64,000 nucleotides of DNA from an uncultured Candidatus Saccharibacteria bacterium (GCA_964579475.1 CAZOFP010000004.1:904-64903), one strand, 5' to 3'. Positions 4,448-41,734 are shown, numbered from the stretch's first letter. A program made the numbers and translations. Notes: generated by a model from the letters alone, not told the origin.

Positions 4448-5503
4448 CTAATAGGTAGCTACCAGAGTGTAAATCATCGTGGTGCTGTACGTACCAGCAG
4501 GGGTGTCAGTAGCGATACCGACTTGTTGTCCGACACGTACGGTATCGGTGCCAGCTGTGGCTGCTGCGTTGGTCATCACTAGGTCATTTGAAGTAGTGAA
4601 ACCAGCCCAGGTGTTAGCTGTGAACTGAGTAAGATCAGCATCTTCCGTGGTGTAGCCCCAAGCTTCGGTGCCAGCTGCTGGGAAGGAAGTCGGTGCAGCG
4701 TTGGTACCAGTGTGGTTGGCGATTACATCACTAGATTCATTAGTTAACTGACCAGTGTGTCTAAGGTAGACGTTGTAGCCGCCTGAAGCATTGGTTGTTA
4801 CTGCTAAGTCATGAGCTGCAATTCCGTTGGCAGAAGTCGTAACTGCCGTGCCGAAATCGATGCCAGTTGCAGTTGAGAGGATAGAAGTAGTAGCGCTGTT
4901 TACGAGTTGACCAGAAGCTACTGCGTTAACTACGAAAGTTAGAGTAGGTTCGATTGTCAGAGAGACGAGGGTTCCGTCCTTGTAGGCAAAAGCCATAGTT
5001 ACGGTGTCGACTTCATTGCCGCCAGTACAAGATGCATCTGTGTAGGTAGTGAGTAGGGCGTAATATGTTTGGTCGGTGTTGCCGTTGGTTACTGCTCCCC
5101 AAACTACATTGCCGTTTGCTGCCGGTGTTTCACCGGTTGCGTTGGTAATACTAAGGGTTCCGTTCGTGCCGTTGGCTACAGTCCAGCTGCCGGTGGTGAT
5201 AAGCGTTGATGAATCTAGCGTTGAGCTAGTAGTAGTGATACCAGCTGGAATAGCTCCTGCGCCATCTGCTTGATCGTTAAGGGCGACTTCAATACAGCCT
5301 ATTGAAGTTCCGGTGGTGAAGCCGGAAGCTGTAGTCGTATAAGTTGATGTTGTGGAAGTACGTGAATCGCCAAGCTCTACAGATGCTGAGGTAAGTGTTG
5401 CTGCCGAAACAGATGCCACATTACCAAAAATCATCATTGCCGTAGCCACTAAAGCTACTGCTTGAATTACGCGTTTTCTTACCAACGCTAAAGACCTATT
5501 CAT
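4448..5503 (-). CDS. Secreted 351-aa surface/fibre subunit candidate, paralog 2
   Basis: Same length and layout as 3140..4195. Signal peptide ends SVSA. A central 122 aa are identical to paralog 1. C-terminus is TLVATY. AAGGAG SD. Confidence 0.6.
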   Translation of the reverse strand: MNRSLALVRKRVIQAVALVATAMMIFGNVASVSAATLTSASVELGDSRTSTTSTYTTTASGFTTGTSIGCIEVALNDQADGAGAIPAGITTTSSTLDSSTLITTGSWTVANGTNGTLSITNATGETPAANGNVVWGAVTNGNTDQTYYALLTTYTDASCTGGNEVDTVTMAFAYKDGTLVSLTIEPTLTFVVNAVASGQLVNSATTSILSTATGIDFGTAVTTSANGIAAHDLAVTTNASGGYNVYLRHTGQLTNESSDVIANHTGTNAAPTSFPAAGTEAWGYTTEDADLTQFTANTWAGFTTSNDLVMTNAAATAGTDTVRVGQQVGIATDTPAGTYSTTMIYTLVATY

Positions 5504-5652: not shown

Positions 5653-6765
5653 TTATCTTATGATAATTTTCCTTTTTCTTTGTCTTTGGGCGTGGTGTGG
5701 ACTTGGCGCGTGGTCAGGCTTTCTACTAGATGTGCCGCTAAGCAAATCGTCGATTTTACTTGAGTCCATGGAAAGTCGAGCCATGTCTTGAGGTCTGTTC
5801 TCGGATTCGTTGTGCTTTCTTTTGAGGATACGAGGGCCGATACGAATACCCTTGAAGCGCCAAAGTAAACGTCTGATGGGTTTTTTGAGTATGAAGGCGG
5901 CAACAAGCACCGATACAGCCATTAGACTTAGGAAAAATATCAGACTTACGAAGTTTGGTAAAAACACAATCGTTCCAGTGTCTAGAGAAGCGAACTGGGT
6001 TGGCGAACCATAGGACAGGTCAATCTCGACTCGATGTAGGCCAACTCGGCCACCAGTTGACCATCTGACATCGTAGCTTTTTGTAGTGTTTGGCAATATA
6101 AGTTGTGGTGGCACAGAAATACTGTCAACTAATCGATCGCTTCGGTCGTAAAGCTTGACTGTTGCAGTCGGCAGAATATGAGTGTTCCCGGTGTTGGCGA
6201 TATTAAAAGATAAGGTTTGATCTTCGCCAAAGACAAAGAAAGGAGTGTCTAGCTGCTCGATAGTAGCTTCCTCTTGAGCATCGCCAGCGACGTTAATAAA
6301 TGCTAGCGAAGTAAGTGTCGGTGTGACTATTGAACCAGAAGCTGACTGTTGTTGAGTTGAAGTAGTTGTGAAGGTGACCATAGCATAGTGTCCGCCAGGC
6401 CCAGCATTTTCCGGTACTAGAAACTGAACGTCAACTGACCGTTGCTCCCCAACGTCTAGCAAGAATTTTCTACCTTTGTCTATGAGCCAGGTTGATGCAT
6501 CAATGTCTTTACGCTTTTGTTGGTTAATGTCGGGGTCGTTTGGTATCAGAGACTGTGCACCGACTTCCACGCCGACGGGGGTTCCAGAGATGTTTTGAAT
6601 AAATATTGTCGCTGAGACTGTCGTGCCGGGTTCTGTGGCGAGCTCAACAATTGCTGGTCTAAGGGCGAGGCCGATTTCTTGTTCGGCTTCAGCCGCAAAA
6701 ACGAGCCGAGGGACACCAATGAATGTCAGTATTGCTAGTCCCACCAGTAAAGTTATTTTACGCAT
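5653..6765 (-). CDS. Membrane-tethered protein with two beta-sandwich-like domains (CscA / DUF916-like architecture), copy 2, with long basic cytoplasmic tail
   Basis: Signal peptide (LVFAAEA). Two PG...v.N.sG-type segments. TM FVSLIFFLSLMAVSVLVAAFIL. K/R-rich tail. The ATG at 6765-6763 overlaps the TGA of the upstream giant gene (TGATG), implying translational coupling. Confidence 0.55.
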   Translation of the reverse strand: MRKITLLVGLAILTFIGVPRLVFAAEAEQEIGLALRPAIVELATEPGTTVSATIFIQNISGTPVGVEVGAQSLIPNDPDINQQKRKDIDASTWLIDKGRKFLLDVGEQRSVDVQFLVPENAGPGGHYAMVTFTTTSTQQQSASGSIVTPTLTSLAFINVAGDAQEEATIEQLDTPFFVFGEDQTLSFNIANTGNTHILPTATVKLYDRSDRLVDSISVPPQLILPNTTKSYDVRWSTGGRVGLHRVEIDLSYGSPTQFASLDTGTIVFLPNFVSLIFFLSLMAVSVLVAAFILKKPIRRLLWRFKGIRIGPRILKRKHNESENRPQDMARLSMDSSKIDDLLSGTSSRKPDHAPSPHHAQRQRKRKIIIR

Positions 6766-9700
6766 CAATAGGTAGCCGTTATGGTGAAGATTATTATAGT
6801 TTGGTAATCGCCAGCTTCTTGGCTTGAGCTGGTCGTAACTCTATGGGTAATGATGAAGTTTTCGTTGGCAACAGAAGTTCCAGAAATAGTTGCGGTGTGG
6901 TCGGCCACGATATCACCAGGTGCAACTAGAGAGAACGGAGCGTAGCAGGGAGGGTTGCCACCGCCAGCACAAGGAGCGCTGTTAAATAGATTTGAGCCTT
7001 GAATGCTGCTGTCATTTGAAGTGTAGCCATACCCTGTGTCACCACCTTGCCAGGTGTCTGGCGAGACGTAGGTTCCACCGTTAAACATCTGTATAGTGTC
7101 CAATCCACCACTCGTCAAAAGTCCGGAAGCATAGGCTCGGACGGTGTAACCGTTGTAAGCATTTGTACTTGTCGTAAGGGTGGTTGATTTGGTTGAAGTA
7201 AAACTATTGGTACTGTTTAGATTGTCGAACTGGACGGTCATTGGTGAGCTAATGAAACTAAGAGTTGGCGCGATCAGCTGGCCGTCTGAACTCTGGACGC
7301 TTTGGTTGCCGGCACTGTCGGTGGCACGGACATTGAAATAATATGGCTGTGAAGTATTTAGAGTTAGCAAGCTATCGGTAATACTGGTAGCCAACACCAC
7401 GTCCGTCCAAGTCTTGATGTTAGTGGTGCTCGGGATGGTACCGATTGAGTATTCATACTTGCTGACTCCCGATCCTGCGTCTGTTATATTCCAGTTTGCG
7501 GACAGCGTATTTAGAGAACCATCGTTGTAGTCGACATCGACGCCCGTGGTAGTGCCGTCATAGACAGTTCCAGCTGGTGACGTAGTATCAACACCAAAGT
7601 CCCTACTGGTCTCGGCGTTACCACCAAAACTAATCCAGGCTGAATAAGCACCTAGGGCGTCCTTGACCCTGACTTGCCAGTGGTAATCTTGCCCAGTGGT
7701 TAAACCAGAAATTGTTACGTCGGCTGGTACGGCAGTGCCGGAATAATTAACGTTGGAACCACATGAAGTTTCGGTATTGGTAAACGCTGTACCGAGTTGC
7801 TGGACTTCGACGCAGAGACTAAGCACGTCACTAGAGTTTCCGTCGCTAACACTAGCAGTGAATTTGACGGAAGTTTCGTTGGTGAAAGCGTTAACAGCAA
7901 TACTGGTATCGTCTGTCTTCTTTTGGTCTAGTGAAGTAGGGCTATTTGGGTTTTGCGGCGCTTCAGTAGAGATGGTTGTAACTTTTGGATAACGGGTGTA
8001 CTGGATTACGCTGCCGCTTGTGCTAACGGCGCGGAAACAATAAGTTGTTACGGCGGGTGCGCCGTTGTTCTCAACAACCCAGTCCCACTCAGCTCGTTGA
8101 TTCTTAGGGATTACGTTTGGGTTGGTAGCTGAATTGTTTGATTCTTCGTAGGTCATGAGAACATTAACTCCGCCATCGAGCAGTGAGCTGGGTAGAGTCG
8201 AGCCATCAGTGGTTGGTCCACCTTGGTTATTACCACGCCAAATTATGCCACTGCCGATGCCGCCAACGTCAGTCCACGTACCAGCAGCTGCGCAGTCAGA
8301 TGCGGCAGAATACTGTAATTTTAGGTCGAAATTGCCTACAGGTTGGTCATAGACTGTGTTTTGAGCAGCCATCCTCAGGCGTATGACATCATTTGTCGCG
8401 ACATTCAGTATGTCTTCATTTTCGTTTCCAAGCGGCGTTGTTGGAGTGACGCTATTTTGTCCGGCATACCAGCGGAAACCGTCTTGGTCGAGCACTAGGG
8501 CATTTTCTAGAGGGCCAGATTCAATGGCTAGCCAAGCATTGGTGTCTGCAGCATGAGTGTCACAGGTGTCTGTGGTATCAATTTCGCAGAAATGAACCTT
8601 AGCGCCTGTAAGTGTTACATCTTTAGCTTCGTCAATTTCAACATCTTGGCCACCGTTGTCGGTTTGTGATGCCGAAATTAAGATTGGGATAGCCGAGAAA
8701 GGCTGGGCAAAGGTGACAGAGGCCCAAGAATCAGAATCGGTATCAATAGACCAGCTACCATTGTCGAACTCACCCAAGAAAGGTTCGTTGCCAGGCTCGA
8801 CGGCTACCCAGCCGACTGTTTCGTTGCCATGAGCACTGTCGCAAGCATCGTTATTGCCTAGCAGCTGGTCGCAGATTCCAGCATTGAAATTGGTGGTAGT
8901 GGTACTGTTGATGACGACTTCTATTGGGAACTCTGTGCTATTGACCGTGTTGACATTAGAGAAAACTAGAGGCGTTGTACCGTATGTACCAGCGTAGTTG
9001 ATTGTGTAATTGGAGCTGTCATCTGCGCCACTGGCCGTGAAGGTACCAGCCTCGATACCGGTCGTTGTCGCGGCAACTGCTGCGTCAATAACCATGTAAC
9101 CGACGGTTTCCGAGATGTGAGTATCGCAGCCGTTGGCCGTTGAACCCTGTGAATCGCAGACACGCATCTGGGCGCTGGTAGTGGTAACGTTTCTAGACTC
9201 AAACACCAATGCCGGCGTGCCAGCACGAGTGTTGGTCGTACCAACAACGACGGGTGTTGTATAGGTGCTAGCAAAAGTGATTGTTGTCCAACCGCCATCG
9301 ACAGCCGAAGCAAAAGAACCTGTTTCACCGAGCGTAGAGAAGACAACTTTGGTGGTCGAAACGCTAAGCTCAGGAAGAACCTGGTAGCCGTCGAGTGCAG
9401 CGGCAGCGGTTGTGTCATAGAGTCTGAAACAATAAGTTTCACCGCCGATGGAATCTTCGGTCATTTCAATGGCATATTCAAGCTCGGTGTAGTAGCTAAC
9501 AGGCAAAGGACCGATAGAGCCAGTAGTGTCAGCGCTTTTGCGACCTTCACCGCTCAGGAAGCTGTAGCTTTCGGTGTTTGCCAGTAGGCCACCAGTCGTT
9601 AGTGTGCCGTCCGGGTTGATATTAGAGCTGTTATACATGGCGACAGCGTCGGTTGCGCTGCTGCCGACACCAGTCCAAGTAGTGACGCTGCTACAACTAG

Positions 9701-13162: not shown

Positions 13163-13198
13163 AGACAACGGATTCTTATATATAAATATTTATAAATA

Positions 13199-13236
13199 AG
13201 TAAAAACCGCCAAGTCCGGGAAGGCCAGGCGGTTTG
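13199..13236 (-). terminator. Rho-independent terminator after the 36-aa ORF
   Basis: AAACCGCC (16-nt loop) GGCGGTTT stem. On the minus strand it is followed by a T-run. Confidence 0.6.
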
Positions 13237-13246
13237 TTACTAGTGA

Positions 13247-15546: not shown

Positions 15547-16045
15547 ATTTAAAATTTGTAAACTCAACAGGGAAGTCGAACTTGGCTTCTTTGATAGCGG
15601 TCATGGCGTCTTGTAATTGATCTTTTTTAGGGCTGGAAACTCGGATTTCCTCACCCTGAATTTGGGTTTTCACTTTTGGTAGTTTGTCACGAAGTAGTTT
15701 GGTAATTTTCTTGGCTCGTTCTTTGTCTAGGCCTTTTTTGAATGTAACTATCCAGGTCATCTTTAGATTGGAGGTTTCTGGTTCGGCCGAGGTGTCGAAA
15801 ACCTTCTGGCTGACGCTGCGTTGGGCGGCCTTTTTACGGAGCATGTCCATAATTGCGTCTAAGTGGTACTGAGTGTCGCCGGTTATCTTCAAAGAGTCCT
15901 TTTCACCAGAGGCGAAATCTACTCCAGCGCTCGTGCCTTTAAAATCATAACGAGTGAGTATTTCGCGGCGTGCTTGATCGACGACGTTGTTCATCTCAGC
16001 TACGTCGTAGTCGCTGACTGCGTCAAATGAATAACTCTTTGCCAT
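15545..16045 (-). CDS. yajQ: YajQ-family nucleotide-binding protein (UPF0234)
   Basis: 166 aa. N-terminus SFDAVSDYDVAEMNNVVDQARREILTRYDFKG and overall layout are typical of YajQ. TGgTAAAAT extended -10 lies 6 nt upstream of the ATG. Confidence 0.85.
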   Translation of the reverse strand: MAKSYSFDAVSDYDVAEMNNVVDQARREILTRYDFKGTSAGVDFASGEKDSLKITGDTQYHLDAIMDMLRKKAAQRSVSQKVFDTSAEPETSNLKMTWIVTFKKGLDKERAKKITKLLRDKLPKVKTQIQGEEIRVSSPKKDQLQDAMTAIKEAKFDFPVEFTNFK

Positions 16046-16146
16046 TTAGGTATTTTACCAGAAATTTGGTGGTGGCGCTGTTTTGCCAGCGCACCGCATC
16101 GTTCTTTTTGGCAGCAAAAAGAACATAAAGACTGCCTCCACGGACG

Positions 16147-16263
16147 AAAACACTATGAACCCAGTCCTCTCATTGAACGGAGCCTGCGACAGCTCGTCGT
16201 TAATCACTCCTCAGACACTCCTCGGCTCTGGCCGTTCACTTCTCGATGGTCTTCATCGGTTTT
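16147..16263. ncRNA. Candidate structured RNA region (strand unresolved, family unknown)
   Basis: Three nested helices: AAAAC/GTTTT plus ATGAA/TTCAT (16147-16159 with 16252-16263), GAACGG-AGCC with GGCT-(CTGG)-CCGTTC (16175-16184 with 16224-16237), and CGAC agctc GTCG (16187-16199). Also a direct repeat CACTCCTC x2. No convincing ORF. Confidence 0.2.
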
Positions 16264-16334
16264 CTTTAGTGTCGGAAATAACTCCAGGAAAAAACAGATA
16301 GAATTATCAAGTTATTCGATCAAGATACAGAGCA

Positions 16335-16366
16335 GTATAGTTATATAATTAATTATATAACTATAC
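16335..16366. repeat. Perfect 32-bp AT-rich palindrome GTATAGTTATATAATT|AATTATATAACTATAC (copy 1 of core TTATATAATTAATTATATAA)
   Basis: Read directly. Core at 16341-16360. Contains TATAAT on both strands. Confidence 0.9.
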
Positions 16367-16409
16367 GGTGTGACCACTGTTACGTGGATAGATGTATTAG
16401 GTAGTAAGG

Positions 16410-16429
16410 TTATATAATTAATCATATAA
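16410..16429. repeat. Copy 2 of the palindromic core, with one mismatch (TTATATAATTAATCATATAA)
   Basis: Read directly. Its centre lies exactly 69 bp from the centre of copy 1. Confidence 0.85.
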
Positions 16430-16514
16430 CTAAGAACAAAGATGCATTTATGCATAGCTGACTGCGGACGGTTTGTAGCTGAGAGAGGGCGCTTGAGGTA
16501 TAATTTCGTCAAGT

Positions 16515-17531
16515 ATGAGTAAAGACAGCAACGATATTGATATTGTCCGCAAGGAACTGACTAAAAGAGTAAAAGAGACCGACGAGCCTCGGTCGGTTCT
16601 GCGTGCGCCTGAGCTCCGAGATCTTTTCAAGAAGCTTGCTAGCCTACCGACTAGCGACCGCGCGAAATTTGGTCAGGAAATTAATTCACTAAAGAACGAG
16701 CTTTTAGCGCTGGTGCAGAGCAAAGAAGACGAAGCGCACAGCCAAGACGTTTCACCGATAGATTTGACTGCTCCTTTTGATGTCAACGTACCAGACGATA
16801 TGAAGCCCAGACTGTTGCCAACAGAGCTTGGCTCACAGCACCCAGTAGTTACAGAACTTGGGATAATCAAAGACATATTCCTGAGAATGGGCTTTAACGT
16901 CGAAGAAAGCCGCCAAATAGACGACGATTATCATATGTTTACCTCGCTGAATTTTCCCAAAGACCACCCCGCGAGGGACGATTACGACACATTCATGACC
17001 GAAGAGGGGCTGATACTGCCAGCCCACACCTCAACCATGCAAAACAGGGTGCTAAAACAATACGATGTACCAGTACGAGTAGTCATACCGGGCAGGGTTT
17101 TTCGTAACGAAGACCTCGATGCCACACATGAGCATACCTTCCACCAAGTCGAGGGAGTTTACGTCGATGAAGGCATAACCTTGGGCGATATGATTGGTAC
17201 AATTGTGGCGTTTTTTGAGGAGTATTTTGGACAAAGTGTAGAGTACAAAACACAACCATTCTTCTTCCCGTTTGTCGAACCTGGGTTGGAATTTCTAATC
17301 AAAAAGCCCGAAGCGCTAAAAAAACCAGGCGAGGGTGAAAGCTGGATGGAAATAATGGGCTGCGGCATGATTCACCCCAACGTTCTTAAAGAGGCTGGCG
17401 TCGATGCGCAGAAATACTCTGGATTTGCCTTTGGCATGGGCGTCGAGCGCATGGTGATGCTCAAATACGGTATTGAAGATATTCGGCATTTCATGAGTGG
17501 TAACTTAGAGTTTTTGAGGCAGTTTAAATGA
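16515..17531 (+). CDS. pheS: Phenylalanine--tRNA ligase alpha subunit
   Basis: 338 aa. Class II aaRS motifs (HPARDDYDTF, FRNEDLDATHEHTFHQVEG, GFAFGMGVERM). ATGA overlap with pheT. Confidence 0.95.
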   Translation: MSKDSNDIDIVRKELTKRVKETDEPRSVLRAPELRDLFKKLASLPTSDRAKFGQEINSLKNELLALVQSKEDEAHSQDVSPIDLTAPFDVNVPDDMKPRLLPTELGSQHPVVTELGIIKDIFLRMGFNVEESRQIDDDYHMFTSLNFPKDHPARDDYDTFMTEEGLILPAHTSTMQNRVLKQYDVPVRVVIPGRVFRNEDLDATHEHTFHQVEGVYVDEGITLGDMIGTIVAFFEEYFGQSVEYKTQPFFFPFVEPGLEFLIKKPEALKKPGEGESWMEIMGCGMIHPNVLKEAGVDAQKYSGFAFGMGVERMVMLKYGIEDIRHFMSGNLEFLRQFK

Positions 17532-31316: not shown

Positions 31317-31514
31317 ACTATGTAATCTCGAACCAGTGGAAGCTTTTATATCTATACTTATGATTGCAGATTTGATAATACAGCTTCAGAATTAATTCTG
31401 AAGGTAGAAGTAAAAAAGAGAAGTTTGAGACGTGATTAGTGATGCGCTAGGTCATGCTTATGCTTGTATTTTGGCCAAAATATTGACATGATGTGAAAAT
31501 TATGAAGTTATTTG

Positions 31515-40315: not shown

Positions 40316-40317
40316 TT

Positions 40318-40352
40318 TAGACGACAGACGACAGAAGCTAGATGGTAGAATA
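40318..40352 (+). repeat. Five tandem heptads YAGANNN (TAGACGA CAGACGA CAGAAGC TAGATGG TAGAATA), starting 3 nt after the gap stop codon
   Basis: Read directly. A near-identical tract is at 51905-51939. Confidence 0.8.
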
Positions 40353-40427
40353 ATAACGAAAGAATTACATGAAAAAGCAGACTCCAAACTCCCAACTCCC
40401 AACTTCTAATCTTCGAGAAGCTGGTTC

Positions 40428-40889
40428 GTGAAGATTTATATCGGCTCAGATCATCGAGGCTTTGAACTAAAAACTAAGTTGTTTGCGTACCTTAGCAAAC
40501 ACGATTACGACGTCGAGGATGTCGGCGACAAACAACTTAACCCGGATGATGACTACCCTCAATTCGCCCAAGAAGCAGCCATAAAGGTGCTCGGTTCCGA
40601 GGACGGCGACACTAGAGCAATTCTTATTTGCGGTGGAGGGCAGGGGATGGCCATTGCCGCCAATCGGTTTAAAGGCATACGAGCTGCAGTAGTTTCCGAT
40701 GCGCATGATGCAAAGATGAGCCGTATCGATAACGATTCTAATGTTCTTAGCCTCTCGGCAGATGAGCTTGAAGAGAATGAAGAAGCAGTCTATGGCATAG
40801 TTGAGACTTGGCTTACAACAGAATTTTCCGGCTCGCCTAGACACGTCCGCCGACTGAAAGAAATTGACGAATTTTATCCAAATATGTAG
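40428..40889 (+). CDS. rpiB: Ribose-5-phosphate isomerase B
   Basis: KIYIGSDHRGFELK and ILICGGGQGMAIAANR. GTG start. Confidence 0.9.
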   Translation: MKIYIGSDHRGFELKTKLFAYLSKHDYDVEDVGDKQLNPDDDYPQFAQEAAIKVLGSEDGDTRAILICGGGQGMAIAANRFKGIRAAVVSDAHDAKMSRIDNDSNVLSLSADELEENEEAVYGIVETWLTTEFSGSPRHVRRLKEIDEFYPNM

Positions 40890-40970
40890 GCACCAGCGGT
40901 GCAGTAGTAAGTAGCTAGTAGAAAGCATCAAGTATGAGAAGGAACAAGCGAACAATACCGGAAAGGAATA

Positions 40971-40994
40971 AGTTATATAATTAATTATATAACT
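40971..40994. repeat. Copy 3 of the AT palindrome: perfect 24-bp AGTTATATAATT|AATTATATAACT
   Basis: Read directly. Core at 40973-40992. Confidence 0.9.
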
Positions 40995-41041
40995 AAGTTT
41001 GGTAGCATGCTTAAACAAATAACAGAGGGAAGAATCATCAA

Positions 41042-41061
41042 TTATATAATTAATTATATAA
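41042..41061. repeat. Copy 4 of the AT palindrome core, TTATATAATTAATTATATAA (perfect)
   Basis: Read directly. Its centre lies exactly 69 bp from the centre of copy 3. Confidence 0.9.
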
Positions 41062-41101
41062 CTATGTTACCTCGTACTTACTACTGCTCGCGAGGTATCT
41101 C

Positions 41102-41734
41102 GTGAGTGTGATTTGTCCAACGATACTGGCAGATAATGCGCATACATATCGTACACAGCTCGAACGTATCGAAGAATTTGCCAAGAGAATTCAAATTGAT
41201 CTTACTGATGGTGAATTTGCCCCAACTAATACCATAAATCCCGTACAAGCCTACTGGCCTGCTGGTATGGATGTGGATATCCACCTGATGTATAAAACCC
41301 CGTCCCAGCAACTGGAGCAGTTGATTCATATGGGACCAAACATGATAATTCTGCATGCTGAAGCGGAAGGTGAGCTACTGGAGATGTTTAACGATATTGG
41401 TGCAGCCGGTATTGAGACTGGCGTGGCTCTGCTCAAAGAGACACGGGTTGAAGATGCCAAACAGCTTATCGAAGCAGTTGATCATGTGCTTATTTTCAGC
41501 GGGGATTTGGGCAAGTTTGGCGGCAAAGTCGATGAATCTTTGTTTACCAAGATTAGAGATGTAAAAGAAATTAACCCTAGCGTTGAGATTGGCTGGGATG
41601 GCGGAGTGAATGCCGACAATGCCGAAATGTTAATGCGAGCTGGCGTGGATGTGCTTAACGTCGGTGGCTTTATCCAAAAGTCAGACAATCCACAAGCTGC
41701 TTATGCTATACTGGAGCGTAAGATACATCAGTAA
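41102..41734 (+). CDS. rpe: Ribulose-phosphate 3-epimerase family protein
   Basis: ICPTILA...IQIDLTDGEFAP...DIHLM...GWDGGVN: a TIM-barrel Rpe-like pattern. GTG start. Confidence 0.7.
   Translation: MSVICPTILADNAHTYRTQLERIEEFAKRIQIDLTDGEFAPTNTINPVQAYWPAGMDVDIHLMYKTPSQQLEQLIHMGPNMIILHAEAEGELLEMFNDIGAAGIETGVALLKETRVEDAKQLIEAVDHVLIFSGDLGKFGGKVDESLFTKIRDVKEINPSVEIGWDGGVNADNAEMLMRAGVDVLNVGGFIQKSDNPQAAYAILERKIHQ

Follow-up and report, generated by a model that had tools for sequence, protein, structure and literature searches.

Several kinds of dispersed palindrome invite comparison with a pair of sequences lying between rpiB and rpe in a Saccharibacteria genome. The REP/BIME/REPIN elements of proteobacteria, with their RAYT Y1 transposases, are short extragenic palindromes found in spacers of all types, including those internal to operons and those between convergent genes. 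The sequence described here is of a like kind, and shares with them frequent doublets of fixed spacing in which the linker is less conserved than the palindrome, positions partly common to related species, and transcription together with neighboring genes. MITEs such as the Correia/NEMIS elements of Neisseria, and the PATEs derived from IS200/IS605, are likewise about 100 bp long, with palindromic or inverted terminal sequences and a conserved interior; they too insert into spacers and operons, carry -10-like boxes and may form long RNA duplexes, and PATEs share the arrangement of two like-oriented hairpins. Rickettsia palindromic elements (RPE) are palindromic repeats of a reduced genome inserted where a hairpin is tolerated, and a counterpart exists here at a helix tip in an L10 leader. 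Meanwhile, near-perfect palindromes, fixed-register tandem boxes and site pairs are shared with operators of the NrdR box, ARG box and MetJ metbox array types.

The genomes of Saccharibacteria and other CPR bacteria measure about 1 Mb; hardly any of their regulators have been characterized, and very few repeats have been described in them. Full-text searches of the literature yielded no description of the motif, or of REP-like elements, in Saccharibacteria/Patescibacteria. The reading that we favor, with about even confidence, is that the pair between rpiB and rpe constitutes one copy, ~103 bp long, of a dispersed and oriented extragenic repeat of REP/BIME- or MITE-like character belonging to a Saccharimonadales lineage. 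Other readings are weighed below as the evidence that bears on them is presented.

The window, by which we mean the whole 64,000-nucleotide stretch of DNA that was analyzed, is assigned to the Saccharimonadales by gene content and named homologs; no tRNA or tmRNA genes were found in it. Pfam bears out the genes named at this locus (locus 2) by the initial annotation: rpe is the first gene of rpe-tktN-tktC-fba-pfkB and is followed by a split transketolase, a class II FBP aldolase and a PfkB kinase. The palindrome pair occupies the sole sizeable spacer of the gap-rpiB-rpe-tkt-fba-pfkB cluster, and rpiB itself is preceded by a TAGAAT -10-like box in the spacer at 40316-40427. Positions of the features, together with the state of the corresponding spacers in relatives, are collected in Table 1.

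Table 1. Palindromes, repeat copies and neighboring features (window coordinates), and the two index spacers as found in relatives
Feature	Position	Strand	Protein identity	Description
rpiB	40428-40889	+		Pfam; upstream neighbor of the palindrome pair
rpe	41102-41734	+		Pfam; GTG start; GAGG Shine-Dalgarno at 41091-41094
Whole repeat element, locus 2	40969-41071	+		Family profile; ~103 bp
Left palindrome of doublet	40971-40994	.		AGTTATATAATTAATTATATAACT; 24 bp, perfect
Element spacer	40995-41041	+		47 bp; homologous to doublet spacers of relatives
Right palindrome	41042-41061	.		TTATATAATTAATTATATAA; perfect 20-bp core
Outer inverted repeat, left arm	40901-40913	.		GCAGTAGTAAGTA; 13 bp, perfect; AGTA-rich stretch
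Outer inverted repeat, right arm	41075-41087	.		TACTTACTACTGC
Companion element copy, locus 1	16331-16437	-		nhmmer 74 bits on - strand versus 38 bits on + strand
Possible degenerate family relative	31384-31403	.		CTTCAGAATTAATTCTGAAG; perfect 20-bp palindrome; spacer between trxB and MazG-like gene
rpiB/rpe spacer, L131			Rpe 93%	Same doublet; 69-bp spacing; 1 mismatch per copy; homologous spacer
rpiB/rpe spacer, L133			Rpe 84%	No palindrome; AGTA-rich outer inverted repeat kept
rpiB/rpe spacer, L108 and L132			Rpe 82%	Single 46-bp perfect palindrome; three boxes; starts 3 nt past rpiB stop
rpiB/rpe spacer, L134			Rpe 77%	One 24-bp palindrome
rpiB/rpe spacer, L135			Rpe 71%	Degenerate single palindrome
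rpiB/rpe junction, more distant relatives			Rpe 45-51%	rpiB and rpe abut without spacer in most; motif in none
YajQ/pheS spacer, L127			PheS 95%	One good palindrome and decayed partner at +69
YajQ/pheS spacer, L128			PheS 89%	Doublet; 68-bp spacing
YajQ/pheS spacer, L129 and L130			PheS 84%, 81%	Short spacers without motif

Two TTATATAA boxes in a 12-bp register, with AG/CT on the outside, make up the left palindrome. In the right one the next pair outward from the perfect core is A/C; with its flanks (41041-41063) it matches the 22-mer given below with one mismatch, and a CTATGTT tail typical of the family follows directly at 41062-41068. The two centers, at 40982.5 and 41051.5, are 69 bp apart, and the distal one lies 50.5 bp upstream of the rpe GTG. 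These values, arrived at concordantly by reading the sequence, by an independent palindrome scan and by a repeat search, agree with the earlier description of a perfect 24-bp and a perfect 20-bp palindrome, 69 bp center to center, some 50 bp before the GTG. Taken as direct repeats, the two copies extend over 32 nt at 91% identity with the same 69-bp spacing.

Chance or low complexity as a source of the palindromes is ruled out by shuffle tests. Matches to the 22-mer GTTATATAATTAATTATATAAC with up to three mismatches occur in the 64-kb window only at 16340, 16409, 40972 and 41041, falling into two pairs, against an expectation of 0.00 over 100 shuffles. All seven TTATATAA octamers in the window sit within these four palindrome sites, where 1.0 would be expected in the window overall. 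The locus-2 palindromes are real and far beyond chance. The sole weaker match in the window is a 3-mismatch AT-rich stretch near 13176; in the region 13176-13240 this near-match, TTATATATAAATATTTATAA, adjoins a GC-rich terminator-like hairpin, AAACCGCC...GGCGGTTT, and is placed in a 439-bp spacer upstream of a gene of 2102 aa.

The long antisense ORF 40467..41018 had been dismissed by the initial annotation as a mere translation of the repeats, and the peptide INYIT is indeed encoded once in it and twice in the ORF 16312..16512. Lying on the opposite strand to rpiB, which it traverses, the ORF 40467..41018 is no gene; more generally, a coding role for the repeats was rejected, the ORFs across them being antisense to rpiB or unconserved. 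A small ORF starting from the ATG of the CTATGTT tail was considered and likewise discarded, since neither frame nor start is conserved across copies. At locus 2, this tail ATG begins a 13-codon ORF (41065-41105, MLPRTYYCSRGIS) with a TGA stop that overlaps the rpe GTG (GTGA); the relative L131 has a longer ORF in that place, ending 2 nt before its ATG, and the other relatives have none. A hairpin predicted at 41086-41107 would cover both the GAGG Shine-Dalgarno and the rpe start codon.

The palindrome unit is built from the 8-bp palindrome TTATATAA in a 12-bp register, as TTATATAA-TTAA-TTATATAA, with a consensus of CATAG-TTATATAA-TTAA-TTATATAA-CTATG, and every copy in the window is followed by a CTATGTT-like tail. 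The element as a whole comprises two such palindromes of 24-30 bp, 68-69 bp apart in direct register, with a conserved spacer between them; its shared layout reads palindrome, CTATGTTGG..GCATGTT..AAATAACAGATG, palindrome, CTATGTT. Within the 47-bp spacer a conserved motif, AAATAACAGAKG, can be recognized, and the most conserved block, AAATAACAGAGG at 41017-41028, gives the element its orientation. On an nhmmer profile of the family, locus 2 scores 74 bits on the + strand versus 29 bits on the - strand; each copy scores about 45 bits better in one orientation, with locus 2 forward and locus 1 reversed.

The locus-2 pair had been introduced as a companion to the one at locus 1. The latter is the same element, in inverted orientation, between DUF520/YajQ and pheST; the first of its palindromes (16335-16366) is perfect over 32 bp, longer than had been stated, and the second (16409-16430) has one mismatch. 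Direct comparison of the two window spacers gives 19/47 identity in reverse-complement orientation, which is not significant (p ~0.18), and their homology becomes clear only once copies from relatives are added. A spacer-only profile made without the window copies finds 40993-41030 as its top match in the whole window (E 1e-3); with the ortholog from L131 also left out, the locus-2 spacer is still matched at E 0.016. Since the spacers are homologous once oriented, the 69-bp spacing common to the two window loci was inherited from a common repeat element, and a locus-specific functional constraint on that distance was rejected.

Around the doublet at locus 2 lies an outer inverted repeat of 13 bp, and related ones occur in L131 and L133. 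A further perfect palindrome, between trxB and a MazG-like gene, may be a degenerate member of the family; at the matching position, L131 (1190-1219) and L135 (2823-2852) have 30-bp TTATATAA palindromes with different but symmetric flanks.

Some observations concern the surroundings of locus 1. A TAAAAT box precedes the ATG of YajQ by 6 nt (window 16020-16045), so that this gene is probably leaderless; for pheS, a GGTATAAT box stands 17 nt ahead of the ATG and there is no Shine-Dalgarno (window 16490-16515), the pheS box being kept in L127, L129 and L130 and replaced by TATACT in L128. Between the YajQ start at 16045 and the doublet, some 230 nt (16075-16300) are homologous to L130:1-300, at a different locus, and in both places the segment precedes a palindrome doublet. 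RNAalifold folds it into a pair of 5' hairpins plus a long-range helix, CCTCCACGGACGAAAAC / GTTTTCTTTAGTGTCGG; in 9 of the 42 predicted pairs both partners have changed. Rfam has no match for the segment, which is a candidate unannotated structured RNA.

Close relatives were chosen by protein homology and sampled around the two index positions, which leaves the set free of exact-match search bias. For the initial annotation, absence of the motif from orthologous positions was part of what would speak against its reading; the palindrome is in fact present in the rpiB/rpe spacer of six of the seven relatives with an Rpe identity of at least 71%, so that this check did not refute it. In L133 that spacer (9427-9599) is devoid of TTATATAA boxes. 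In their place is a long, imperfect inverted repeat, rich in AGTA, whose arms span 21-30 nt at 87-90% complementarity; this repeat is related to the outer inverted repeat of the window. The motif was absent throughout 33 kb from the L133/L129 clade member, the rpiB/rpe spacer included. The palindrome-bearing spacer is a lineage-specific acquisition: the element entered an ancestrally spacer-less rpiB-rpe junction and then persisted through substantial divergence while being remodeled.

The window holds four sites at two loci, and the sample of relatives holds about 13 loci in 209 kb (five if the two index spacers are set aside), all of them intergenic. Doublets of 68-69-bp spacing were found three times in L130 and once each in L128 and L131, and once oriented, the spacers of all doublets align. 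Elsewhere among the relatives, unrelated spacers contain doublets, single palindromes or three-box palindromes. The repeat is thus multi-copy, with copies at non-orthologous positions in relatives, and it decays or collapses into single or three-box palindromes. Across the clade the core differs at 0-2 of 20 bases, whereas orthologous spacers are only about 45% identical, so something acts on the core sequence itself.

The three doublets of L130 are additional to the index positions and lie within 5 kb of accessory genes. They bracket, in alternating orientation, McrB/HNH, GIY-YIG-like and RNase H genes, and since the period and repeat length are also CRISPR-like, the pair could be imagined as a recombination or array site, either a mini-array with a repeat of ~30 bp and a period of 69 bp or a set of dif-like 11-6-11 tyrosine-recombinase sites. 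This idea is largely refuted, and we regard it as very improbable. The supposed CRISPR spacers share one sequence across loci, neither cas domains nor cas or recombinase genes were found in the window or flanks, core genes adjoin most of the sites, and a distance of 69 bp is too short for two sites to recombine. Judged by eye, Fur/PerR 7-1-7 boxes, NrdR boxes, dif/Xer sites, C-protein boxes, sigma-54 promoters and RTP Ter sites seem unlikely matches in spacing or copy pattern. The same accessory region of L130 contains identical copies (5324-5347 and 6232-6255) of another hairpin repeat, GCCACTTTCGCCATCAAAAGTGGC.

An exact search with the 20-mer, using one genome per species, found at least 106 loci, a figure that includes chance matches in very AT-rich genomes. 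Among the matches listed, at least seven Saccharibacteria MAGs with 45-51% GC have the core flanked by GAC/GTC; because these sites came from an exact-match search, the invariance of their core is partly ascertainment. They are mostly single and lie in tandem, divergent and convergent spacers beside genes of unrelated function that Pfam confirms to be real. Neighbors of sites include rplJ, nusA, prfA/B, MscS, glycosyltransferases, peptidase M1 and McrB/HNH; four sites are in convergent spacers, one upstream of nusA is common to two MAGs, and the motif is exclusively intergenic. A partial copy of the element, comprising spacer and right palindrome, was detected in another Saccharibacteria MAG (L036, E 6e-7). 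A phage or plasmid origin was rejected, since viral contigs did not contain the exact 22-mer and blastn gave no match in a phage collection.

In L039 (JAGQNT010000188, 7037-7176, - strand), the L10 leader of rplJ, recognized as RF00557 with 46.8 bits (cut-off 44), has the palindrome inserted as 21 nt where its first helix ends in the tip, 45 nt downstream of the leader's own TATAAT box. Here the palindrome is transcribed and tolerated, and is neither promoter nor terminator. Rfam at its gathering threshold found nothing else in the window and 33 loci beyond rRNA and tRNA.

Similar sequences were also seen in other settings. Christensenellaceae and related MAGs (L023, L065, L075, L086, L052, L031, L004) have the same 22-mer, ATTATATAATTAATTATATAAT, at one conserved position after a terminator, where it covers a TTGACT-17-TATAAT promoter from -10 to +10; the product of the next gene starts with MRSN.VAVLDIRS. 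The arrangement resembles a promoter overlapped by an operator, and common descent with the Saccharibacteria element is improbable. Three-box arrays (TTATATAAT, 12-bp period) occur in several contigs of the Patescibacteria MAG WFTD01 (L011, L045, L053, L057, L106) and in Falkowbacteria JABMQE01 (L038, L076, L103), so the box motif reaches beyond Saccharibacteria; these arrays often lie after a terminator-like hairpin, before an ATG, or at contig ends. The MAG CAZXYN01 has three copies of a repeat of at least 350 bp (L035 ~640-735, L056 ~1965-2065, L071 ~7640-7745, reverse strand). In it a hairpin-rich segment of ~100 nt with compensatory changes, for which Rfam has no match, lies ~60 nt from a pair of palindromes 36-38 bp apart, GACTTATATAATTAATTATATAAGTC and the variant TTTATATAAAyATTTATATAAA.

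The initial annotation proposed that the pair controls or insulates transcription into the pentose-phosphate/glycolysis operon, as a dimeric or tetrameric regulator bound to both palindromes might do. Much of what it pointed to holds: the pair is real, it is the same as at locus 1, and the site persists at the rpiB/rpe junction across relatives. An operator would also suit near-perfect palindromes whose core is conserved and whose flanks are symmetric in a lineage-specific way (G:C or C:G at ±11), and the 12-bp box register suggests cooperative binding. What finds no support is the notion of a device dedicated to this operon. The same element stands beside unrelated genes, in convergent spacers and in a leader RNA; its sites follow no coherent regulon or promoter-proximal rule, unlike known paired operators, and are carried on a homologous repeat unit; and their inherited spacing of 68-69 bp, at 10.5 bp per turn, amounts to 6.5-6.6 turns (~6.6 for 69 bp), which places them out of phase for simple looping. 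Moreover, one clade member, L133/L129, does without the motif, site strength in the window is all-or-none apart from the one weaker match, and no regulator is encoded nearby. We consider a dedicated operator pair quite improbable.

TATAAT boxes within the palindromes raise the alternative of a symmetric promoter, in which the right palindrome would be the -10 element of rpe-tkt-fba-pfkB, with facing boxes that are possibly bidirectional, a start at ~41057 and a 5' UTR of ~45 nt. Between 40890 and 41101, -10-like hexamers occur only in the palindromes, whereas other window genes have G-TAnAAT boxes; a similar situation is seen in several tandem and divergent contexts, including rpe and, in two MAGs, nusA, where no other such box lies between palindrome and start codon; lone boxes of this kind fit a promoter role. 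The nearest palindrome center lies 45-80 nt before the rpe start in five relatives, the Christensenellaceae 22-mer shows the same sequence serving in a canonical promoter, and other CPR MAGs have three-box arrays between a terminator and the next ATG. On the rpe side, however, no -35 was found at 16-18 bp for the + strand boxes, the conserved ATAACA block being 19-20 bp away, and the only promoter-like call at the locus (GTAACA-18-TATAAT, - strand) points away from rpe. At locus 1 both pheS and YajQ have boxes of their own (GGTATAAT, TAAAAT); sites between convergent genes and downstream of the L10 leader's own promoter are also hard to reconcile with this reading, which we judge unlikely.

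The copies may instead matter as RNA. Models of the 101-nt element RNA (-23.4 kcal/mol, z = -5.3) and of the 231-nt spacer RNA (-64.7 kcal/mol, z = -5.5) both pair the two copies with each other, suggesting a 22-bp copy-copy duplex in a larger hairpin with the 13-bp outer stem at its base. Such a structure could be an RNase III-type site or a barrier to 3'-exonucleases, by which the rpiB and rpe segments would become independent of each other in stability, as with REP/BIME elements in E. coli operons; the persistence of an outer inverted repeat in L131 and L133, and of a palindrome inside the transcribed leader of L039, would be in keeping with it. However, the singles and three-box forms of relatives cannot form the long duplex, and locus 1, whose 32-bp copy alone forms a hairpin of -14.6 kcal/mol, folds into local hairpins instead. 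Single hairpins at locus 2 are marginal (-7.2 kcal/mol, and -2.5 for the right copy), mismatches give G:U wobbles on either strand with no pattern, and an all-A/T core without compensatory drift argues for sequence recognition over stem stability. A function residing in this predicted RNA structure seems distinctly improbable to us. An intrinsic terminator was rejected, given the weak hairpins, the absence of G:C pairs in the core and the lack of a T-run after them; no canonical terminator was found between rpiB and rpe, though such terminators are present in related genomes, for example at L104:5848-5873.

For the dispersed repeat, the question becomes what recognizes its core. With hairpins that are weak and devoid of G:C pairs, hairpin stability is an unlikely target, and the element is unlikely to act by that means. 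Most likely, judging from the sequence comparisons, a symmetric protein recognizes the all-A/T core sequence-specifically, in the form of duplex or readily melting DNA. The flanks are less decisive: the pair at ±11 is G:C or C:G, differing mainly between clades, and covariation is significant overall and weak within clades, where one pair (columns 8/33, GAC-type clade) reaches p = 0.016 and the others are not significant. Structure-driven covariation was set aside, the signal being mainly a difference between clades; the symmetry fits either a dimeric protein or hairpin-templated correction, and its pattern is equally compatible with a hairpin constraint and with flanks that co-evolve with such a dimer.

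Candidate proteins were sought in several ways. No transcription factor or transposase was found among the ~50 window ORFs, and no tblastn match to RAYT or IS200 TnpA in 1.05 Mb, a weak test made with approximate query sequences. No parent IS sharing the ends of the element turned up in the window or in the loci examined, and neither a target-site duplication nor a clean empty site could be made out, a duplication being inseparable from the palindrome flanks. A small DNA-binding protein recurring beside the sites was considered and rejected, the small flanking ORFs being mutually unrelated and without Pfam DNA-binding domains.

A more ambitious proposal is that the invariant palindrome TTATATAA-N4-TTATATAA might be the site of a conserved putative Patescibacteria DNA-binding protein that marks transcription-unit boundaries genome-wide and, at rpiB/rpe, gates read-through into the pentose-phosphate/glycolysis operon. 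Such a protein could impose a barrier or insulation effective in both directions, or regulate globally, with the repeat element as the vehicle that spreads its sites. We hold this to be rather unlikely.

Under the dispersed-repeat reading, the recognizer of the core could be a host nucleoid or insulator-type factor, or a mobilizing enzyme of REP type. Because rpiB has its own TAGAAT box and no canonical terminator precedes rpe, the doublet is probably transcribed with rpe from the rpiB promoter. At this junction, the element would be at most punctuation between genes, as opposed to a dedicated operator pair. An effect on transcription from rpiB into rpe is plausible and could take several forms: a protein on the four boxes might impede read-through, the copies might pair as a 22-bp RNA duplex to make a processing or stability site, or the TATAAT boxes might add some initiation.

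How far should the likeness to described families be taken? Several points weigh against the repeat-element reading: no mobilizing enzyme was found in the weak test above, no target-site duplication or clean empty site was defined, copy density is low for a REP-like element (~5-13 loci in 209 kb), and the long-kept perfect core at rpiB/rpe, and upstream of nusA in two MAGs, looks more like selection for host function than like selfish DNA. Unlike REP, BIME or REPIN sequences, the element has an all-A/T core with a weak hairpin, boxes in a 12-bp register expandable to three, copies in direct register with an asymmetric tail, and a core common to several Saccharibacteria lineages; it lacks the GTAG foot motif of REP, having CATAG/CTATG or GAC/GTC flanks in its place, no RAYT was found, and its density is in the range of tens per Mb. 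From MITEs and PATEs it differs in having no definable target-site duplication, in that no parent IS or transposase was found, and in that each terminus is a complete palindrome that also exists alone; terminal inverted repeats of the MITE sort are present only trivially, the termini being identical palindromes. RPE, at 100-150 bp, often lie in frame within protein genes, whereas the present element is found only outside coding sequence. The resemblance is one of architecture and distribution; because neither a RAYT nor a parent IS was found, and because the foot motif of REP is missing, membership in either the REP or the MITE family is not claimed.

The element is nonetheless an extragenic palindromic repeat in a phylum where such elements have scarcely been described. 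Its presence accounts for long spurious antisense ORFs and cautions annotators against reading each copy as a dedicated operator. The 24-mer can be used as bait for the putative DNA-binding or mobilizing protein, and the palindromic repeat family offers a way into how the operons of Saccharibacteria and other CPR bacteria are punctuated.
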